Virus record (IMG/VR): IMGVR_UViG_3300031521_000009
Source of the DNA: a virus
Length of the DNA: 64,000 bases
Reading direction: 5' to 3' (one strand)
The notes under the pieces were generated by a model. That model saw nothing but the letters and a program-made list of their open reading frames with translations, was not told the DNA's origin and did not search any database. The translations under genes and the position numbers were made by a program. Below are positions 1,578 through 19,130 of this stretch, one piece after another. Numbering within the stretch: position 1 is the stretch's first letter; every line of letters begins with the position of its first letter.

Positions 1578-3614
1578 TTAAGAAGCGAATTTAATATTTT
1601 GATTATTCTCAGATACATATCCACCATATGTGTCCTCTTCTAGTTCTTCTCCTTCTGAATAGGCTGCGAACTCTTGTGTTTCTAATGCACTGGCAACATT
1701 TAATGCACTGGCAATTGTAATATCACAATTATATTTTGGTGACTTTTTGAATTTGGCAAAAGCTTCAATCTGTCGTATATCAAACATCTTATCAATAATG
1801 GCAAAATCATCTTGCTTCATCTTATCTCTCCAAATATTTAAAGCATGTGGTATAAATGATTGTTCTACTCCATAACGTTGTGCAGCCTTACCATCTTGTA
1901 CATATTGACTAATTACCATTTGTGGGCGTTCTTGTAATAGAAACTCACAACCGGCCCGCTTATAATAATCAAAAATCAATACATTGGAATATTCAATCAA
2001 ATTCTCACACTCACCATAGAGATAACAAAGCTTTATTGAATCTTCATAGAACTGATAATTTCCACCTTCATCTTCTGTTGGTCGTTCTGTCACCCGGGCA
2101 ACCCAATGATCAAATGTATGATGTGAATCAATAGCTCCTTTCCAAATAGAACAACTACCCAATGAGAATGATGTTTCACTTTCTACTTTGTCATAGCTGT
2201 CCGTAGCGGCACTATAAAGATTTTTCCATACTTTCCCATAGCCATCAACTTCCGGTGCCTGTATGATAAGGAAACGACCTAATTCAGATGGTACAAGTTC
2301 TACTCCTTTACCCCAATCAAATGGATCAATCCAATTGATTTCTGCATTGTAAGCAATTTGCTGTTCACGATGGGTAAGAAGATATCGTTTTCTATCATTC
2401 AATTTTTGATTAGCCGTTTCTCCAAGAAAACCACCAGTAGCCACCATAAACATTTGTGATAAATAGAGTGGTTTAGCAGTAAGAGCAATGTAACGCTCAG
2501 AAGAATTTTTACTCGATAATTCTTTTTGAATCGAAACAATACTTTCCTCTATCAAACTATTACCATCTTCATCAATAATTTCAAACTCATAAGCTGGAAC
2601 AAAGGCCGCTACCTTACCAGTCGAAGAGATTTCATCTTCTTCCCATATATTATCAAACTCGAGTAAGTCAAACTTAGCCGGATTGTATGCCATTTCCTCT
2701 ACATCAGCAACAGACTCGTCCATATCACCACCAGTACCAATATACATTTGATAACCGGTTTTGTCACCCTCTGCGAGTAGAGATGGTTTGACAAACTCTG
2801 CAGTTTGCTTAAGCGTGTCTTTTTTCCACTTTCCAATTTCTTCATATAATATCCAAAAAGGTGTAAGTCCTGAAACAGCTTGCGTATTATCTTTTGCAGT
2901 AATACAGTAGACTTCACTACCAAAACCGAGCATAAGCGTTCTTTTCTCTCCGGTTTCTTCATTTATTACTTCTTCACGATATGAAGATTTAATATAGTCA
3001 TTTCTATTTGGTGACCTACGTTTGTAGAACTCACTATCTCCTAGCCAATCCAAACCACGAACTACATTACTCATGGTATGCTCAGCATAGTTTCCTTGAC
3101 CGGCAACAATTACATTTTGTGATCCTGGAATAAAAATGAAGTTGTAACCAATATTACTTGCAGCATATTCAGAGAATCCTTTCTGTCTTGACTTAGGAAA
3201 TAACAAATCTTTTGCATTTAAGAACATAAGTTCTATACACATGAATTTGAAATAATCTAATGATGTAAATTTAGGATGGCGTTTATCCTTTCTCTTTACG
3301 TTATCAAGCTTAGCTAAGATTACCCAAAAATTTAAATAGAAATACATTCGCCCGGGAATCCAAATATCATATCCACGCTTTGTAGCATTTGGAACAATAT
3401 ATCCTTTGACACAACGACGATATTGTTCATGCCACCACGCTTGGTAGTCTGGACTATCTTTATTGGGTTGCATTTCATTCTTGTTATAGATAACAGGACT
3501 GAAACGTTTAGTATCTTTGAAATCTCTTGTTAGACACATGTTATCAATGTCCGGAACAAGTGTTCTATCCATTGCTAAAATATCATCTAAATATGTAAGC
3601 TTAATATCAGCCAT
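1578..3614 (-). CDS. terL: Terminase large subunit
   Basis: 678 aa with crAss-type Walker A KSRQKGFS, Walker B ILYEEIG, GTGG coupling motif, and C-terminal RNase H-like nuclease (ATDSYD...NCDITIA). Confidence 0.93.
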   Translation of the reverse strand: MADIKLTYLDDILAMDRTLVPDIDNMCLTRDFKDTKRFSPVIYNKNEMQPNKDSPDYQAWWHEQYRRCVKGYIVPNATKRGYDIWIPGRMYFYLNFWVILAKLDNVKRKDKRHPKFTSLDYFKFMCIELMFLNAKDLLFPKSRQKGFSEYAASNIGYNFIFIPGSQNVIVAGQGNYAEHTMSNVVRGLDWLGDSEFYKRRSPNRNDYIKSSYREEVINEETGEKRTLMLGFGSEVYCITAKDNTQAVSGLTPFWILYEEIGKWKKDTLKQTAEFVKPSLLAEGDKTGYQMYIGTGGDMDESVADVEEMAYNPAKFDLLEFDNIWEEDEISSTGKVAAFVPAYEFEIIDEDGNSLIEESIVSIQKELSSKNSSERYIALTAKPLYLSQMFMVATGGFLGETANQKLNDRKRYLLTHREQQIAYNAEINWIDPFDWGKGVELVPSELGRFLIIQAPEVDGYGKVWKNLYSAATDSYDKVESETSFSLGSCSIWKGAIDSHHTFDHWVARVTERPTEDEGGNYQFYEDSIKLCYLYGECENLIEYSNVLIFDYYKRAGCEFLLQERPQMVISQYVQDGKAAQRYGVEQSFIPHALNIWRDKMKQDDFAIIDKMFDIRQIEAFAKFKKSPKYNCDITIASALNVASALETQEFAAYSEGEELEEDTYGGYVSENNQNIKFAS

Positions 3615-3617
3615 AAA

Positions 3618-4259
3618 TTATTTTGCTATAAAATATCCACCTATTGCACCGGCGCCTAAATAAAACCAAATATCATTTTTACTCCACCATCCCGTTGAAC
3701 GTTTTAATGCTCCAATCAAATCTTTTTTTTCTTTTTGAAGAACAAGATTTTCATTTTTGGATTGTTCTGTTTCTTCTACTTGTAGAAAGTATTTTTTAGT
3801 TACATCAGTCAGACTTAATTCGGTACTTGCTAATTTTTTCTCAGTACTTTTTATGATGGTATCTTTCTGCTGCAGAGAAATATTTTTTAGTCCTACAAGA
3901 CTGTCACAATTTGCAAGAGTATGCTTAGTAGTATCGGTATTATAATCATTCTCAAACTTACTTATCTTATTTGTAAGAACTGAATTTTTGTTCTTATAAG
4001 TAGTAATCGTTTTAGTTGATTCTAAGCGATCTTTAGCCCTCAAAGTATTCACACTATCGATAGAGTCTTTTAATTGCTTACGATAAGCGCTAGTTGCTGT
4101 ATTATACCCATTACGATATGCAGATGATAGTTCTTGATTTACAATCAAGTTAGATGCTTGTTTTGATTGACATGATTTAAACCAACCGCCAATAAACAAC
4201 AAAAGCGCGATAGAAATTATCGCACTTATTATCCAGTTTTTCTTTATATATTTTATCAT
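3618..4259 (-). CDS. Putative spanin (N-terminal hydrophobic/lipobox-like segment, coiled coil, C-terminal hydrophobic tail)
   Basis: Hydrophobic N-terminus ending FKSC, heptad-rich middle, C-terminal WFYLGAGAIGGYFIAK. Last gene of the lysis cassette. Confidence 0.55.
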   Translation of the reverse strand: MIKYIKKNWIISAIISIALLLFIGGWFKSCQSKQASNLIVNQELSSAYRNGYNTATSAYRKQLKDSIDSVNTLRAKDRLESTKTITTYKNKNSVLTNKISKFENDYNTDTTKHTLANCDSLVGLKNISLQQKDTIIKSTEKKLASTELSLTDVTKKYFLQVEETEQSKNENLVLQKEKKDLIGALKRSTGWWSKNDIWFYLGAGAIGGYFIAK

Positions 4260-4477
4260 TGTTCTCGCGTCCCTCCTGTTACGTCACTATCTTTTGTAAG
4301 AAAAGCAATTATTGCTGCAAGGAATATACTAATAGGAGAAAGGACCGATGCAACATCAAGAAGTGTGCATTTACCGGTATAAACAAGAAATAAACAAATG
4401 AATAAAACAATTATTCCAATAACACCCATTAAAGATGTTTTCCATGATTTGTGCTTATAAGAAGTACGTGGTTTCAT
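4256..4477 (-). CDS. Holin (2 TM)
   Basis: Likely start ATG 4477 (MKPRTSYKHKSWKTSLMGVIG). WKT-LxG motif and two TM helices, next to the endolysin. Confidence 0.7.
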   Translation of the reverse strand: MKPRTSYKHKSWKTSLMGVIGIIVLFICLFLVYTGKCTLLDVASVLSPISIFLAAIIAFLTKDSDVTGGTREQ

Positions 4478-4505
4478 AATTATTAATTTTATGTGTAAAT
4501 ACAAC

Positions 4506-4535
4506 ATTAGGGAATGAACTTAATCACTCCCTAAT
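4506..4535 (-). other. Stem-loop between micropeptide ORF and holin
   Basis: Minus strand ATTAGGGAGTGA-ttaagt-TCATTCCCTAAT, a 12-bp stem with one G-U and no strong U tract. Confidence 0.55.
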
Positions 4536-4547
4536 AGATAATAAATA

Positions 4548-4619
4548 TCAACAAGTTTTCTTGTTTGACATTGGTTTCTTCTTTCCAGAAGAAGCAGGTT
4601 TTTTCTTTGTACCAGCCAT
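4548..4619 (-). CDS. Lys-rich micropeptide MAGTKKKPASSGKKKPMSNKKTC (23 aa)
   Basis: Hand-translated. A-rich leader (aaaactaaacattATG), fills the gap between endolysin and holin. Confidence 0.5.
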   Translation of the reverse strand: MAGTKKKPASSGKKKPMSNKKTC

Positions 4620-4643
4620 AATGTTTAGTTTTAAAAATGAATA

Positions 4644-5132
4644 CTACCGACCAAAGTAAAGTTTTACATCAAGTTTTCTACGCTTAATCAAACCATTGGA
4701 AGGTTTACCTTTCGAATTAATCCATTTATTAAACTCATGTTCAATATTTGGATCGTTGGAATTTGCAAGAACAAGTTTTAAAAGACGACTGTCGCCAAGT
4801 CCTTCTGGTGTAGAATCAATATCAATATCGCTACCAACATTGTAAGCAAAATCTACAAGTGCATCAAATTTACCTTGATTTACTTCAACTGGACCAAGTA
4901 AGTAAATTACATCTTTCTCAAATTGTCTTACATCATATTTTAAAAGTTCGTCAGCTTTACTTTGTGTAATAGCAGGATCTTTCAGACTTACACGAACACC
5001 ATTTGAATATCGAGTACTACCCCAACCAATAGTAGGAATACCAGATTGACATAAATAAGGTTTAAGTTCACACCCTTCACATGATTTTAATACTGCATAT
5101 CCTTTTTCTGAAAATTTTAAATTTGTATTCAT
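4644..5132 (-). CDS. Endolysin, GH24 phage lysozyme
   Basis: EG-x-LKPYLCQSGIPTIGWGST, FDALVDFAYNVG and GLIKRR motifs. Confidence 0.92.
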   Translation of the reverse strand: MNTNLKFSEKGYAVLKSCEGCELKPYLCQSGIPTIGWGSTRYSNGVRVSLKDPAITQSKADELLKYDVRQFEKDVIYLLGPVEVNQGKFDALVDFAYNVGSDIDIDSTPEGLGDSRLLKLVLANSNDPNIEHEFNKWINSKGKPSNGLIKRRKLDVKLYFGR

Positions 5133-5145
5133 AATATGTATTTAT

Positions 5146-5517
5146 TTAATCCGATTTATTTTCAATATCTAAAGCACGCATTTTAATTGCTACTGGACAA
5201 TTATCTGTATTGTCTTTATTATGTTTGCAACTTTTATTAGAACTTACAATCATTCTATATGCTGAGATAAGTCTTTGTGAACGATTATCTTTTTTTAGAA
5301 GTTTTTCAACATCTTGTTCAAGAGTTTCAATTTTCTTCTCAGCTTCTAATTTCCATTTAAGAAGAAGATTTAGTGAAGTCTCCCATGATTGATTTTCTTT
5401 GATAATTGCATTACTTTTTCGAATGCTAATAGAGGATGGAGAAAAATATGAAACAATACTCATTGCTCCACCAGCAGCTCCAATAGCTCCACCTATTAAT
5501 ATTAAAATATTATCCAT
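5146..5517 (-). CDS. Membrane protein with coiled coil (holin/antiholin-like)
   Basis: N-terminal TM plus coiled coil, directly upstream of the endolysin. Confidence 0.5.
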   Translation of the reverse strand: MDNILILIGGAIGAAGGAMSIVSYFSPSSISIRKSNAIIKENQSWETSLNLLLKWKLEAEKKIETLEQDVEKLLKKDNRSQRLISAYRMIVSSNKSCKHNKDNTDNCPVAIKMRALDIENKSD

Positions 5518-5681
5518 CGTTTTCTTTTTATATAAGTTTCGTCAATTTTTTTTGATTCCTCTAGTAGTCGTATTAAATGATCTATTTCATTAGCAGTCAT
5601 ATTATCACAAACTCCATTATCTATTGCTTTTATAACTCTTTTGAAGAGTCGTATGATTGTTTTTTTTAGCGTAGCATCCAT
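5502..5681 (-). CDS. Unannotated 59-aa protein, paralogue of the N-terminal domain of HTH protein 17520..17813
   Basis: Hand translation MDATLKKTIIRLFKRVIKAIDNGVCDNMTANEIDHLIRLLEESKKIDETYIKRKRWIIF. Overlaps both neighbours and aligns ungapped to VLKMIENNECEDLTNEELEQISIL. Confidence 0.75.
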   Translation of the reverse strand: MDATLKKTIIRLFKRVIKAIDNGVCDNMTANEIDHLIRLLEESKKIDETYIKRKRWIIF

Positions 5682-6042
5682 AGTAAAAATATAGAAATAT
5701 TGATAAACTCAAAGATAATAATAAAATAGCACTCAAACAGTAAAATATATATGGCAATTTTATATTAACCTTATATAAATCTACTAAGACTAAAATTAAA
5801 ATATCCGTGTAGATTAATATTCTATGCCAGGAACAAAATCTAAATGTATAAGATAATGCTAACATACCTATATGAAATAAATAACAATGACAAATTATAG
5901 TCGTATGTGAAGTATATGCTGTATAATCAATAAATCCAAAAGCTTCCCCAGTCATACCTATAGCTAAATAAACTGTAAGTATAACTGGGAATAACTTTAC
6001 GAAGTAAAGAGATACATATCTTGATATATGTTCAAGATTCAT
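5617..6042 (-). CDS. Four-TM membrane protein (FRFCSWHR motif)
   Basis: 141 aa with four hydrophobic segments and a His/Cys-containing loop. Confidence 0.7.
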   Translation of the reverse strand: MNLEHISRYVSLYFVKLFPVILTVYLAIGMTGEAFGFIDYTAYTSHTTIICHCYLFHIGMLALSYTFRFCSWHRILIYTDILILVLVDLYKVNIKLPYIFYCLSAILLLSLSLSIFLYFYYGCYAKKNNHTTLQKSYKSNR

Positions 6043-6047
6043 AATTC

Positions 6048-6557
6048 TTATTTGCTAGGTGGGAATGTTGCACCACCTGAGTCCGGGCTTTTTTTATCAT
6101 CAGCTTGATCAGAACTTTCTTTTTTAATTTTCATTTGTTTCCAATTATTTGGTTGTGAAAAAAATTTAAGAGTAATTAAAGAATTCATAGGTATTCCTTT
6201 TGTAGAACGAACTGTTGATTCTTTAATCTCTACTAATGAAATTTTACGTTCAATTTCAAAATCTTTTTGAAGTTTTGCTTGAAGAATTTTATATTCTTTT
6301 TGTTCATCTAATGAAAGTAATAATATACTATCATCATGTTGAGCATTTACTTCTTTCCCTTTTTCTTGAATAATATTTTCTAATTCAATTAAACGTGGAT
6401 TAATTGTTTTTTGAATTTTATTATTTTCTTTTTCAAGAATTTCAAAGTTATCTAAGATAAGACAATTTAATTCAGTATTATCAATACCTTTAGCAGAAAA
6501 AATTGTCATTAAATTACTAATCTCAAAAAACTTTACTCTAATTTCTCCAATTTTCAT
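6048..6557 (-). CDS. Hypothetical protein; last 28 aa (ATG 6134) may be an independent peptide MKIKKESSDQADDKKSPDSGGATFPPSK
   Basis: Helical 140-aa body, then a T7 run, an A-rich leader and an internal ATG before a compositionally distinct tail. Confidence 0.55.
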   Translation of the reverse strand: MKIGEIRVKFFEISNLMTIFSAKGIDNTELNCLILDNFEILEKENNKIQKTINPRLIELENIIQEKGKEVNAQHDDSILLLSLDEQKEYKILQAKLQKDFEIERKISLVEIKESTVRSTKGIPMNSLITLKFFSQPNNWKQMKIKKESSDQADDKKSPDSGGATFPPSK

Positions 6558-17519: not shown

Positions 17520-17813
17520 ATGAGAAATTTAAATAAGATCATTTCTATTGTTTTAAAAATGATAGAGAATAATGAATGCGAAGATTTGACTAATGAAGAA
17601 TTAGAACAAATATCAATACTTATTCATAGACCTACTACAATGGGCCGAGAAGATGCTGCTAAGTTTATGGGAGTATCACTAAATAAGTTCCATGAACTAA
17701 AAGACATGGGTATAATATCAGAACCGCGCAAACGTAAAGGATTCAAAGAGAAAGAATATTATCTATCTGATTTGAAAAAAGCATTAGAATTAAAGAAAAA
17801 ACTAGACCTATAA
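17520..17813 (+). CDS. HTH (excisionase/MerR-like) DNA-binding protein with extra N-terminal domain
   Basis: MGREDAAKFMGVSLNKFHELKDMGII...GFKEKEYYLSDL. Confidence 0.75.
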   Translation: MRNLNKIISIVLKMIENNECEDLTNEELEQISILIHRPTTMGREDAAKFMGVSLNKFHELKDMGIISEPRKRKGFKEKEYYLSDLKKALELKKKLDL

Positions 17814-17819
17814 AATTCA

Positions 17820-17860
17820 TTAGTACTAAGTTAGAGTAGTATATAATTTTGACATGTCAA
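17820..17860 (+). promoter_or_regulatory. Promoter (TAATTTTG 17844-17851) with two perfect palindromes
   Basis: TTAGTACTAA (17820-17829), and TTGACATGTCAA (17849-17860) overlapping the -7 element. Confidence 0.6.
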
Positions 17861-17891
17861 CAATTCAGTTGGCAATTAAAAACTATATATT

Positions 17892-18623
17892 ATGTTGACA
17901 TTAGATGGTACACTACCAACTGGCTCATTAGGCGGTGGTAGTTCAATGGGTTCCGGAGTAGGTCTTGGAGCAGTCGGTGGTGGTGTTGCTGGGTTAGTTC
18001 TCGGTTCACTTCTTGCAAACAATGGTAATGGTTTGTTTGGTGGTGGTAACAATGGCAATGCAAATGTTGCTGAGTTTGGTGCTATCAATAACCAAATACA
18101 ATCATTGGCCGGTCAAATCAGTAATACTGCATTGACTGGTCAAATTCGTGCTGATACTATTGACCTTTCTCAAAGTATTAGTAATGTAGGTACACAAATA
18201 GGACAATTGGCGACTGCTCAAGCTGCAGCTAATTTTACTACTTTGGATTCAATCAATGGATTGGGAAGAGATATTACCGCTTCTCAAAATCAGAATGCTC
18301 TTCAACAATTAAACAGTTTCAATAACCTTACTACAACTACATTGCAAGGCTTCAATAGCTCAGCAATGCAAGTACAAAATGCTACGAATCAAATCATAGC
18401 ACAAGGTACGGCTAATGCAGCTGCTATGGCTCAATGCTGTTGTGAGATTAAGAGTACTATTCTTGCCGATGGTAATGCAACACGCGCACTTATCAATGAC
18501 TTGAATGTTCAAAATTTACGGGATCAACTTTCTGCTGCTAACAACAAAATCAGTAACAATGAACAAAATCAGTATTTGTTGAATACTATTTTGACTCATA
18601 TTACTCCTACAGCAGTAGTTTAA
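17892..18623 (+). CDS. Gly-rich/TM, Gln-Asn coiled-coil protein with CCC motif
   Basis: GxxxG-rich hydrophobic N-terminus and AMAQCCCEIK...TRALI...LRDQL. I recognise this as a recurrent phage family of unknown function. Confidence 0.75.
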   Translation: MLTLDGTLPTGSLGGGSSMGSGVGLGAVGGGVAGLVLGSLLANNGNGLFGGGNNGNANVAEFGAINNQIQSLAGQISNTALTGQIRADTIDLSQSISNVGTQIGQLATAQAAANFTTLDSINGLGRDITASQNQNALQQLNSFNNLTTTTLQGFNSSAMQVQNATNQIIAQGTANAAAMAQCCCEIKSTILADGNATRALINDLNVQNLRDQLSAANNKISNNEQNQYLLNTILTHITPTAVV

Positions 18624-18634
18624 TACTTGCAATT

Positions 18635-18943
18635 ATGGCCAGTCCAGTAATTGTAGGTACTTCGGCTATAGTAGTCGCTCCTATAAATAAGAAAAGAAGT
18701 AACATTCGATTTCAGAATACCAGTACTAATATAATCTATATAAAGAAAATTCCTTTGAGTGGTCCTTATTCGGTTGTATCTGCTACTGATTATGAAATTC
18801 AATTGTTCCCGGCATCATCTTCTCAGGAAGGTGGTGAAGCATTCGAAACTAACTCTATTGCATCTTTTATGGCTATTGCAGCCGGAGCAAGTAGTGCTTT
18901 AGCAGTTTATGAAACTAATAAGGTAACCTCTAAAACTCATTAA
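18635..18943 (+). CDS. Hypothetical beta-sandwich protein
   Basis: R..I.FQNTS.NIIYI pattern, in operon with the CCC protein. Confidence 0.65.
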   Translation: MASPVIVGTSAIVVAPINKKRSNIRFQNTSTNIIYIKKIPLSGPYSVVSATDYEIQLFPASSSQEGGEAFETNSIASFMAIAAGASSALAVYETNKVTSKTH

Positions 18944-18944
18944 G

Positions 18945-19130
18945 ATGGAAGAAATAACATTGCATTTACCTCTTAGTAAGGTAATAGAACTTGTTAGACA
19001 AGAGGAAAGAATGATGATTAAGAAATTTTTAGCTACAAATTTAAATCAACAAACTGCTGATTACATTGATCAGTATGTTCCTGTTGAATCAGAAGTATTG
19101 GCTATGTTTACATGTCCGGGCATCGGATGA
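18945..19130 (+). CDS. Hypothetical protein
   Basis: 61 aa, last gene before the terminator. Confidence 0.6.
   Translation: MEEITLHLPLSKVIELVRQEERMMIKKFLATNLNQQTADYIDQYVPVESEVLAMFTCPGIG

Follow-up and report, generated by a model that had tools for sequence, protein, structure and literature searches.

The window analysed here, a 64,000-nt stretch of viral DNA (IMG/VR record IMGVR_UViG_3300031521_000009), carries three unannotated, interlocked genes on the minus strand, 5′ of the lysis genes of a crAss-like phage. They are real and conserved, and the sequence data suggest that they probably serve lysis timing. The first is a peptide-coding tail (6048..6134), the last 28 codons (MKIKKESSDQADDKKSPDSGGATFPPSK) of a 169-aa ORF (6048..6557). 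Its TAA stop (6050-6048) precedes, by 5 nt, the ATG of the second, a 141-aa membrane protein with four transmembrane helices (4-TM; 5617..6042), defined by phmmer clusters, alignments and an AF2 model. The third is a 59-aa ORF that carries an N-domain (ND) but no helix-turn-helix (HTH; 5502..5681). Read in the +1 frame, it shares 65 nt with the 4-TM gene, and it shares a further 16 nt with the gene that follows. In overlapping pairs of this kind, gene callers often miss one member. The following gene (5146..5517) encodes a 123-aa single-pass membrane protein, with a Gly-rich N-terminal transmembrane segment, a coiled coil and a C-terminal C-x(n)-C-P element. Then come, on the same strand, the endolysin, a GH24 phage lysozyme (4644..5132; Pfam PF00959, 1.6e-29; phrog_7, 3.4e-38); an 83-aa two-TM protein, a holin-like candidate 3′ of a terminator-like hairpin (4256..4507); and a 213-aa spanin-like protein (3618..4259) with a hydrophobic segment at both termini and a coiled coil, which matches the Rz-like spanin family phrog_1152 at 3e-4. 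Far from this block, on the plus strand, lie a 97-aa protein (P0001; 17520..17813) in which a two-helix N-domain precedes an excisionase/MerR-type winged HTH, and an operon (17892..18943) encoding a 243-aa glycine-zipper, N,Q-rich, CCC protein and a 102-aa partner.

An earlier note, made from the letters alone, had described three packed elements 5′ of the lysis genes. Every one of its statements about the sequence was verified, including the 28 codons from ATG 6134 in frame with the 169-aa ORF across a T7 run, and the elements form a conserved, coupled unit in relatives. Sequencing error at the T7 run or at an A8 run was considered and rejected: the frames are the same in many contigs that are independent of one another. 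A scan for sigma-70 promoters gave nothing above shuffles.

Two scans of IMG/VR located 178 and 215 4-TM loci, and a metagenome scan one extra locus; representatives form 29 clusters at 50% identity (phmmer). The samples carrying the module are of gut and wetland origin, and the window phage itself occurs in samples from wetland. A nucleotide search of deposited phages with the region gave no match, and the sole deposited phage with a detectable 4-TM homologue is csAssE-Sib (OR575929.1; tblastn 6e-5, pairwise 1e-12), where the CDS WOZ57278-WOZ57280 are all annotated as hypothetical proteins. This phage has the same arrangement: a 40-aa Lys-rich micro-ORF, a 138-aa 4-TM protein with FRFCIWHR, and an overlapping +1 ORF with the N-domain. 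It differs in three ways: the downstream ORF is a long form (129-131 aa) that joins ND to a winged HTH, 62 nt with a strong hairpin (z -4.2) separate micro-ORF and 4-TM gene, and the cassette sits among structural rather than lysis genes.

The motif FRFCSWHR, which the earlier note had picked out, occupies residues 67-74 of the window's 4-TM protein, and the AF2 model (pLDDT 82, pTM 0.72) contains the four TM helices that had been proposed. Across the family, conservation is concentrated in K-x-Y-P in TM1, the loop F-x-F-C-x-W-H-R (67-74) and Gly122-Cys123 at the end of TM4; S64, C70, W72, H73 and G122 are invariant. The predicted topology is N-in/C-in, with the Cys/His loop and the Gly-Cys facing the cytoplasm, as the K+R counts per loop support: loops 1 and 3 average 0.7 and 0.2, while the N-terminus and loop 2 average 1.7 each and the C-terminus 4.4. 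Four TM helices, a charged C-terminus and the vicinity of an endolysin are what a holin would present; none of the described holin models in Pfam, PHROG and NCBIfam matches 4-TM, and family and fold searches linked it neither to a holin family nor to a fold of solved structure. Pfam returned nothing for the window's 4-TM protein at E 0.1, and Pfam, PHROG, NCBIfam and PADLOC together nothing for 4-TM, ND, the peptide or the 169-aa ORF. Searches with the 4-TM model recovered generic helical bundles from the PDB with Foldseek (best E 2.1) and with VIA-align wide (best Z 8.5); the ESM Atlas gave TM scores of 0.44 or lower, and a feature search nothing above 0.88. A word-based protein search with 4-TM found just one close relative, and a literature search on the motif, csAssE and crAss lysis cassettes found nothing relevant.

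The 59-aa ORF, proposed earlier as an overlooked gene, proves to be a genuine one. Compared with the related locus L083, codon changes in its own frame are 11 synonymous to 2 non-synonymous, whereas the other frames give 2 to 11 and 1 to 12; the frame is under purifying selection. An ND ORF is present in the +1 frame in 23 of 25 distinct types. Its start ATG-GAT-GCT overlies the 4-TM codons TAT-GGA-TGC, which specify the conserved x-Gly-Cys, and the ATG is preserved through NAT codons (Tyr, His, Asn or Asp in 4-TM) in 21 of 23 clusters. ND ORFs begin MDA(T/S)LKK and have no hydrophobic signal, lipobox or TM segment. The predicted structure is a helix, a G-x-C-D loop and a second helix, a two-helix unit of about 35 residues. 

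Such an overlap might also be read as a means of making one tethered protein: 4-TM and ND would be joined by +1 frameshifting or slippage in an A-run (A8 here), and the free 59-aa product would be minor or absent. The +1 relation of the two frames holds in all 20 tabulated overlaps, 10 of these contain an A-run of 6-8, and in one natural case (L009) a 1-nt deletion yields exactly such a fusion, of 4-TM to the HTH-bearing form of ND. But L009 is one of about 115 csAssE-type loci and possibly an assembly error; A-runs of 6 or more are missing from half of the family; in L121 the ND-HTH gene starts after the 4-TM stop, with no overlap; and the dual-coding constraint on the ND start would be unexpected. 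We regard such tethering as very unlikely. What does fit is a candidate partnership in which the N-domain works together with the membrane protein, since the genes overlap (L121 excepted), a Cys/His loop and Gly-Cys are predicted on the cytoplasmic side, and natural fusions occur, the one in L009 and another in L102, where the start of ND is fused to the TM-coiled-coil protein.

The N-domain also occurs in a second place. The resemblance between the 59-aa ORF and the protein at 17520-17813 had been noted as an ungapped 24-residue match with 8 identities; pairwise BLASTP scores it at E 3e-4, and comparison of profiles for the short and the HTH-bearing families (hhalign) gives 95.1% probability and E 3e-8 over 35 columns, confirming homology. 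With an HTH-family profile built without the 59-aa ORF, searched against 1181 six-frame segments of the window, that ORF was the sole other match (E 1e-5, next best 2.8); tblastn with the 59-aa ORF gave no match. In the AF2 model of P0001 (pTM 0.57), residues 40-94 form the winged HTH with pLDDT above 90 and ND stands at about 68, so that ND is not confidently packed on the winged HTH in the model. Foldseek also finds a winged-helix fold, with matches to RdfS, RacA, GlnR, NmlR and SoxR (MerR family; probability 0.93-0.98, E 0.04-0.2). In Pfam, P0001 itself matches nothing at E 0.1 or better; the homologue P0046 reaches 8.8e-6 against HTH_17 (PF12728), with 26.3 bits for a cut-off of 27, and the same family is precomputed for three P0001 homologues. 

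The ND-HTH form occupies the 4-TM-overlapping slot in L085, L100, L127, L183 and csAssE-Sib. Moreover, homologues of the glycine-zipper/CCC proteins lie in the 4-TM/ND-HTH locus of L085, L121 and L183, directly 3′ of ND-HTH in the last two and one gene further in L085; the synteny of peptide, TM protein, HTH and CCC that had been predicted is therefore found in these relatives. No annotated family was found for the proteins of 17892..18943. The glycine-zipper protein was also considered as a possible relative of the 123-aa coiled-coil protein, and homology was rejected: BLASTP made no alignment, and the two have the architecture alone in common. The suggestion that the short ND is an adaptor or dominant-negative of the HTH protein fails as a general role, as two phages, one complete (38.7 kb) and one 92% complete (63.5 kb), carry the HTH-less ND only, with no HTH paralogue.

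The motif of the peptide is family-wide: P-[RQD]-[TSDN]-G-G followed by a Pro/Lys-rich stretch, present either as the tail of a longer ORF or as a micro-ORF. The upstream ORF varies from 16 to 173 aa, its C-terminal 10-20 residues being conserved regardless, and the peptide can end unrelated ORFs of 94-173 aa. Codon changes in the last 14 residues within the window's lineage number 4 synonymous and 0 non-synonymous; the N-terminal half varies. Conservation is at the level of amino acids: Arg in the motif is written AGA, CGC or AGG, and third positions are free. The earlier note had the peptide in frame with the upstream ORF across the T7 run; this fusion is no homopolymer error, as the same 169-aa ORF recurs in at least eight samples, on contigs independent of one another. 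L083 and L097 have the alternative layout: the homologue of the 169-aa ORF ends at KNWKK, and the 33-aa ORF that comes next, overlapping it through ATGA, is separate. As far as about 6146, this region and L083 are 85-90% identical in nucleotides; beyond that point identity falls to about 45%.

One way to understand these properties is to suppose that the peptide itself does nothing once made: it would be a translated leader whose termination brings ribosomes to the 4-TM start, with poly-proline and EF-P as possible means of tuning, and 4-TM and ND would be the working unit. In the manner of a leader peptide, the stop of the upstream ORF lies between -9 and +11 nt from the 4-TM ATG in 24 of 25 types, mostly as ATGA (the sole exception, the csAssE type, has it at -65 nt), and conservation is limited to the C-terminal residues, whatever precedes them. 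About 15 of 23 types have a peptide with PP or PPP in its final 12 residues. In L087 and L091 the peptide is reduced to its last 8 residues and the core motif is lost, beside the same 4-TM allele, and the full peptide is thus dispensable at least there. Other observations speak against this account. The most conserved element, P-R-T-G-G-G, lies upstream of the prolines, at a variable distance from the stop, and is maintained through synonymous codon changes, for which a pure coupling device would have no need; and PP is missing altogether in L085, L104, L105 and L121. The distance from Gly-Gly to stop, 3 to 16 residues, also argues against a classical arrest peptide of the SecM, TnaC or MgtL type, in which it would be fixed. 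A leader and nothing more is a rather unlikely account. An RNA hairpin in place of the peptide was considered as well, because codons for Gly (GGN) can pair with those for Pro (CCN), and was rejected: the 80 nt 5′ of the 4-TM ATG, folded for 21 diverged loci, gave z of about 0, apart from the non-coding csAssE hairpin.

A second perspective, that of the earlier note, makes the peptide a signal. In an Agr-like form, the peptide would be processed, and exported with the aid of 4-TM as a Cys/His membrane peptidase or receptor, and the signal would reach the ND regulators. Certain features favour this: a conserved peptide always stands beside a membrane protein with invariant Cys and His; the partner domain is carried by an HTH protein; cleavage after Gly-Gly would release Pro-rich peptides of 4-15 residues; and peptide and 4-TM are replaced jointly between close relatives as a single cassette (nucleotide identity about 45%, against 85-95% in the flanks). 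The exchange is not specific, however, since the neighbouring endolysin is swapped between relatives in the same way. Twenty-four upstream peptides were inspected; they are charged and Gly/Pro/Lys-rich, with no conserved Cys, signal sequence or hydrophobic segment. Two more points speak against a diffusible signal: the peptide's occurrence as the tail of unrelated ORFs and its reduction in L087 and L091. No sensor kinase or TPR receptor is nearby, and most family members, including the complete 38.7-kb phage, lack the HTH.

The AgrD precursor starts with an amphipathic leader and forms its thiolactone through a conserved Cys; the window's peptide has neither feature. The likeness to AgrB/AgrD consists of a polytopic membrane protein with Cys/His near its cytoplasmic face, a small peptide gene and a link to an HTH protein, but 4-TM packs four TM helices into about 125 aa, Pfam AgrB (PF04647) matches none of 18 diverse members at E up to 5, the peptide gene comes first, and AgrC and AgrA are absent. 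Arbitrium (AimP/AimR) employs a secreted pre-pro-peptide with a signal sequence and an intracellular TPR-type receptor; our peptides have no signal-like stretch, and the cassette encodes no TPR protein. Communication by the peptide is accordingly judged highly improbable, and a coupled leader or small cytoplasmic subunit is more likely than a secreted signal.

The company that the module keeps points to lysis. Most relatives have the order peptide, 4-TM, N-domain ORF, single-pass coiled-coil protein, endolysin. Of the loci with the short ND, 16 reach far enough to show what follows the coiled-coil protein; in 14 of them it is a cell-wall hydrolase, and a two-TM protein and a spanin-like gene lie 3′ of the hydrolase. 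Seven hydrolase families fill the slot (GH24, GH108, GH19, PF11860, the PG_binding_1 type, DUF5675 and M15); close relatives have GH108 in place of the window's GH24. The 123-aa coiled-coil protein, always between ND ORF and endolysin, is a candidate holin, antiholin or i-spanin-like lysis protein: its own PHROG matches are weak (phrog_18116/23256), and those of its relatives, also weak, are to Rz-like spanin, holin and XhlA-like families (E 1e-3 to 1e-2). The actual holin could be the small two-TM protein after the endolysin, instead of 4-TM; relatives have conserved two-TM ORFs of 66-83 aa at the same site. 

A role in lysis is not obligatory, as seven cluster types carry the module apart from lysis genes. 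This is one reason to consider that 4-TM might be a membrane accessory apart from lysis timing, such as a superinfection exclusion protein or modifier of the host envelope, with ND as its cytoplasmic partner or regulator; it would lie at the boundary of tail-fibre and lysis genes because that boundary is a recombination hot spot. The cassette does directly follow the tail-fibre genes, its left junction has recombined with fibre-like ORFs in L087 and L091, and 4-TM alleles of near-identical phages are highly divergent, with 29-37% amino-acid identity. But the order 4-TM, ND, coiled coil, endolysin is kept through all seven endolysin families, in phages of 38 kb to about 170 kb; the overlaps imply co-translation with a lysis membrane protein; and L102 fuses the ND start to that protein. 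An accessory role of this sort seems unlikely.

The reading we prefer, to which we give roughly an even chance, takes the front half of the lysis cassette to be a lysis-control module coupled through translation, with ND acting at the cytoplasmic Cys/His face of 4-TM. That is, ribosomes ending the peptide would re-initiate on the 4-TM gene, and the chain of overlaps would yield the products together; 4-TM would sit N-in/C-in, with its Cys-x-Trp-His loop and C-terminal Gly-Cys on the cytoplasmic side; the two-helix ND, with its conserved Cys, would act at that face, beside the N-terminus of the coiled-coil protein; and the three proteins would jointly determine, or hold back, the moment at which the membrane is permeabilised and the endolysin acts. 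Such a layout would be holin/antiholin-like, ND taking the place of a cytoplasmic antiholin such as T4 RIII. In other phages ND is fused to the excisionase-type winged HTH, and there 4-TM may hold or release a small DNA-binding protein. The window phage has both, ND alone beside 4-TM and the ND-HTH protein before the glycine-zipper operon; in this phage, then, lysis control and that operon could engage in cross-talk, which is not a general property of the family.

A bolder version supposes a three-part membrane switch of peptide, 4-TM and ND, in which the cytoplasmic Cys/His site captures or releases whichever ND-bearing protein is present, lysis subunit or transcription factor, possibly through a metal or thiol link from that site to the ND cysteine. 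We think it doubtful. If it were true, one membrane sensor would couple the state of the cell envelope or its redox condition to lysis timing and gene expression, and the window phage would do both at once by means of two ND paralogues.

To our knowledge, how crAss-like phages and others of the Bacteroidota type control lysis has hardly been studied; these phages are difficult to culture. Three previously undescribed protein families are defined here, together with a fixed gene grammar (coupled micro-ORF, 4-TM, +1 ND, coiled-coil membrane protein) that can mark the start of a lysis cassette. The small ND alternates between two contexts, a protein of the lysis cassette and one that binds DNA, and is still encoded on the membrane-protein gene; it offers a handle on how phages might link membrane events with transcription. 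If the 4-TM/ND pair does time lysis, it would represent a new type of holin regulator.

Holins are small membrane proteins with at least one TM domain, a charged cytoplasmic C-terminus and a gene beside the endolysin, and cytoplasmic antiholins are small soluble proteins that bind the cytoplasmic part of the holin and delay lysis. T4 T, with cytoplasmic RIII and periplasmic RI, and lambda S105/S107 are examples of holin/antiholin control. The window module resembles these in placing small membrane proteins before an interchangeable endolysin, with a small soluble protein, predicted to be cytoplasmic, alongside; in its tight, translationally coupled packing; and in the basic C-terminus of 4-TM, predicted to be cytoplasmic. 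ND is like RIII in being small and free of TM segment and signal, and is encoded on the 4-TM gene. The differences are that searches found no relation of sequence or fold, that the dual-start motif is absent, that the invariant Cys-x-Trp-His loop is unusual for holins, and that the partner domain is also fused to a DNA-binding domain. 

Rz/Rz1 offers another parallel: there too, the end of a gene for a membrane protein contains a second lysis gene in the +1 frame, and selection acts on both frames. The embedded Rz1 is a lipoprotein, with a signal peptide and a lipobox Cys; ND has neither, is predicted to be cytoplasmic, and shares with an embedded o-spanin the +1 frame alone. Its overlap is confined to its 5′ part (23-131 nt), and distinct spanin-like genes come after the endolysin. 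Over its last 55 residues P0001 resembles the winged HTH of excisionase and MerR proteins (HTH_17; RdfS, BldC, RacA, GlnR), and it differs in its additional N-terminal two-helix domain, which also stands alone on the membrane-protein gene. Finally, transcription factors are sequestered at membranes in the case of Mlc-PtsG and of anti-sigma factors; the likeness is one of analogy, not of homology, and lies in the proposal that ND-HTH is held at a membrane protein encoded just upstream.

A short peptide, a four-helix membrane protein (4-TM) and a small N-domain (ND) would together form a translationally coupled lysis-control unit. The window that encodes them is part of a large phage, a distant relative of Crassvirales. 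TerL (1578-3614) is 27-28% identical to crAss-like terminases; a tail fibre of 1346 aa is present, as is an ORF longer than 4280 aa; contigs sharing the window's proteins reach 172 kb. All the elements described in the earlier note are found in the sequence. The minus strand runs from the tail fibre through a 165-aa ORF, a 169-aa ORF (6048-6557), 4-TM (5617-6042), a 59-aa ORF (5502-5681) carrying ND without a helix-turn-helix (ND-short), and a 123-aa single-pass coiled-coil protein (5146-5517) to a GH24 endolysin (4644-5132; PF00959, 1.6e-29); a terminator-like hairpin, an 83-aa 2-TM protein, a 213-aa spanin-like protein and TerL follow. Between the endolysin and the hairpin (4505-4536) lies a Lys-rich micro-ORF of 23 aa (4549-4620, minus strand; MAGTKKKPASSGKKKPMSNKKTC). 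The endolysin slot holds GH24 in the window, as against GH108 with PG_binding_3 in four near-identical relatives (L002, L083, L087 and L089); in L083, a 429-aa pentapeptide-repeat gene is inserted 3' of the endolysin.

Homologues of 4-TM form 29 clusters at E <=1e-3 (phmmer, 1.84 billion representatives), and two scans of IMG/VR confirmed 178 and 215 loci; those fetched were sorted into 23 clusters at 70% identity, with L102, L110, L112 and L183 added. Residues K16, P19, S64, C70, W72, H73 and G122 are invariant. The AF2 model is a four-helix membrane bundle (pLDDT 82, pTM 0.72), and the topology predicted from K+R counts places both termini and the F-x-F-C-x-W-H-R loop on the cytoplasmic side. 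There is no family match in Pfam, PHROG, NCBIfam or PADLOC, and fold searches gave no outstanding match among solved or predicted folds. No paper on the cassette was found in the literature; among deposited phages it occurs only in csAssE-Sib (GenBank OR575929.1), annotated there as hypothetical proteins.

Two arrangements of these loci can be distinguished. Class A, with about 16 types and the window among them, comprises peptide, 4-TM, ND-short and a single-pass protein with a Gly-rich TM, a coiled coil and C-x(n)-C-P; a cell-wall hydrolase comes next in 14 of 16 loci of sufficient length, then a 2-TM protein and spanin-like genes. The hydrolases belong to seven families: GH24, GH108, GH19, PF11860 muramidase, PG_binding_1 type, DUF5675 and M15. 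A constant membrane block combined with an exchangeable enzyme has the look of a lysis-control module. In Class B (7 types), a winged HTH is attached to ND (ND-HTH). Three of these (L085, L121 and L183) carry a glycine-zipper/CCC protein and a small partner next; therefore, the predicted TM-HTH-CCC synteny exists, with its two halves apart in the window phage, where the counterpart operon occupies 17520-19130. In the 168-kb relative L183 (3379-4182), the glycine-zipper/CCC gene is split into ORFs of 51 aa (N-terminal) and 108 aa (C-terminal) about 320 nt apart, and a 57-aa ORF runs the other way within the gap. Possible explanations are an insertion, an intron-like element or disruption of the gene.

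The 59-aa ORF is a genuine overlapping gene, read in the +1 frame and sharing 65 nt with the 4-TM gene. In 23 of 25 types, such an ORF begins close to where the 4-TM gene ends, with ATG-G in 18 of 20 tabulated overlaps, usually ATG-GAT-GC; these nucleotides coincide with the 4-TM codons x-Gly-Cys. In 21 of 23 clusters, the invariant 4-TM Gly is preceded by a residue with an NAT codon (Tyr, His, Asn or Asp), which keeps the ND ATG intact. Codon changes between the window and L083 in the non-overlapping part are 11 synonymous to 2 non-synonymous when read in the ND frame, and 2/11 and 1/12 in the other two frames. The predicted secondary structure is helix, G-x-C-D loop, helix. A 4-TM/ND frameshift fusion is not a family-wide feature; it may occur where there are A-runs (10 of the 20 overlaps). 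In public gene calls the pair is systematically half-annotated: contigs identical to the window (L088, L090, L094 and L096) keep the 59-aa ORF and drop the 141-aa 4-TM gene; other contigs show the reverse.

The peptide had been proposed as one part of a communication or lysis-timing circuit. Nothing supports secretion; the peptides have neither signal nor hydrophobic segment. In the window the peptide forms the C-terminal end of the 169-aa ORF, in frame; since this ORF recurs on independent contigs of several samples, the arrangement is no error. In L083/L097 it is a separate ORF of 33 aa, and in L085, L101, L106 and L111 unrelated ORFs end in it. Whether as an ORF of its own or as the end of a longer one, the peptide frame stops -9 to +11 nt from the 4-TM ATG, mostly as ATGA, in 24 of 25 types; the single exception is the csAssE type. 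The last 10-25 residues have a basic or acidic start, P-[RQD]-[TSDN]-G-G-[GA]-[TSA] and a Pro/Lys-rich end (PDSGGATFPPSK in the window; elsewhere, for example, PRTGGGTVNPPPKQDV, PRSGGGTGTPPIKPKR and PQTGGAAPPPPGK). Conservation is at the amino-acid level: Arg codons in the motif are AGA, CGC and AGG, third positions vary, and the last 14 residues show 4 synonymous and 0 non-synonymous changes in the window lineage, while the N-terminal half varies. The alternative, that an RNA hairpin is the conserved element, failed when folding was tested.

Identity between the window and L083 is 85-95% on both flanks and about 45% between about 6145, where the peptide starts, and about 5667, where ND starts; peptide and 4-TM were thus swapped as a single cassette. 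The endolysin is swapped between relatives in the same manner; the exchange is thus ordinary module swapping and no evidence for pherotypes. In L087/L091 (1682-2134), a 150-aa fibre-like ORF rich in Gly has entered the peptide region by recombination and runs out through its last 8 codons, leaving only GATFPPSK ahead of the same 4-TM allele; the tail-fibre/lysis boundary is a recombination junction.

The profiles of the two forms of ND match: ND-short (A6) against ND-HTH (A7) gives 95.1% probability and E 3e-8. Within the window, each profile picks the other's protein as its top non-self match, and the ND-HTH profile also detects ND-short ORFs in three further phages. The window's ND-HTH protein, P0001 (17520-17813, plus strand), ends in an excisionase/MerR-type winged HTH; its ND is modelled with lower confidence and is not packed against the HTH. 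ND-short without ND-HTH is found in a complete DTR phage of 38.7 kb and in a 63.5-kb phage that is 92% complete; therefore, ND-short is not there merely to antagonise its HTH paralogue, as had been suggested. ND would be a portable 4-TM-associated domain, which some phages joined to a DNA-binding domain. Two fusions, each a single case, point to ND lying physically near membrane proteins. In L009, of the csAssE group, a 1-nt deletion fuses 4-TM with ND-HTH. In L102 (511-807), the product of the +1 ORF that begins on the x-Gly codons of 4-TM is 98 aa long. In it, a short ND-like start (ITCDMSE) is fused to a TM helix and coiled coil, with an amidase-like gene next; its coiled coil should be periplasmic if its ND part is cytoplasmic. 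4-TM and ND would act jointly at the cytoplasmic membrane face, beside the single-pass lysis protein.

In csAssE-Sib, a 40-aa Lys-rich ORF and hairpin 5' of the 4-TM gene resemble the window's 23-aa micro-ORF and hairpin in composition and layout. The single-pass coiled-coil proteins have in common the motif C-x(5-8)-C-P at the C-terminus, frequently accompanied by His (SCKHNKDNTDNCP in the window's 5146-5517 protein); it could form a disulfide or bind metal, in the manner of i-spanins or the periplasmic domain of the T4 holin.
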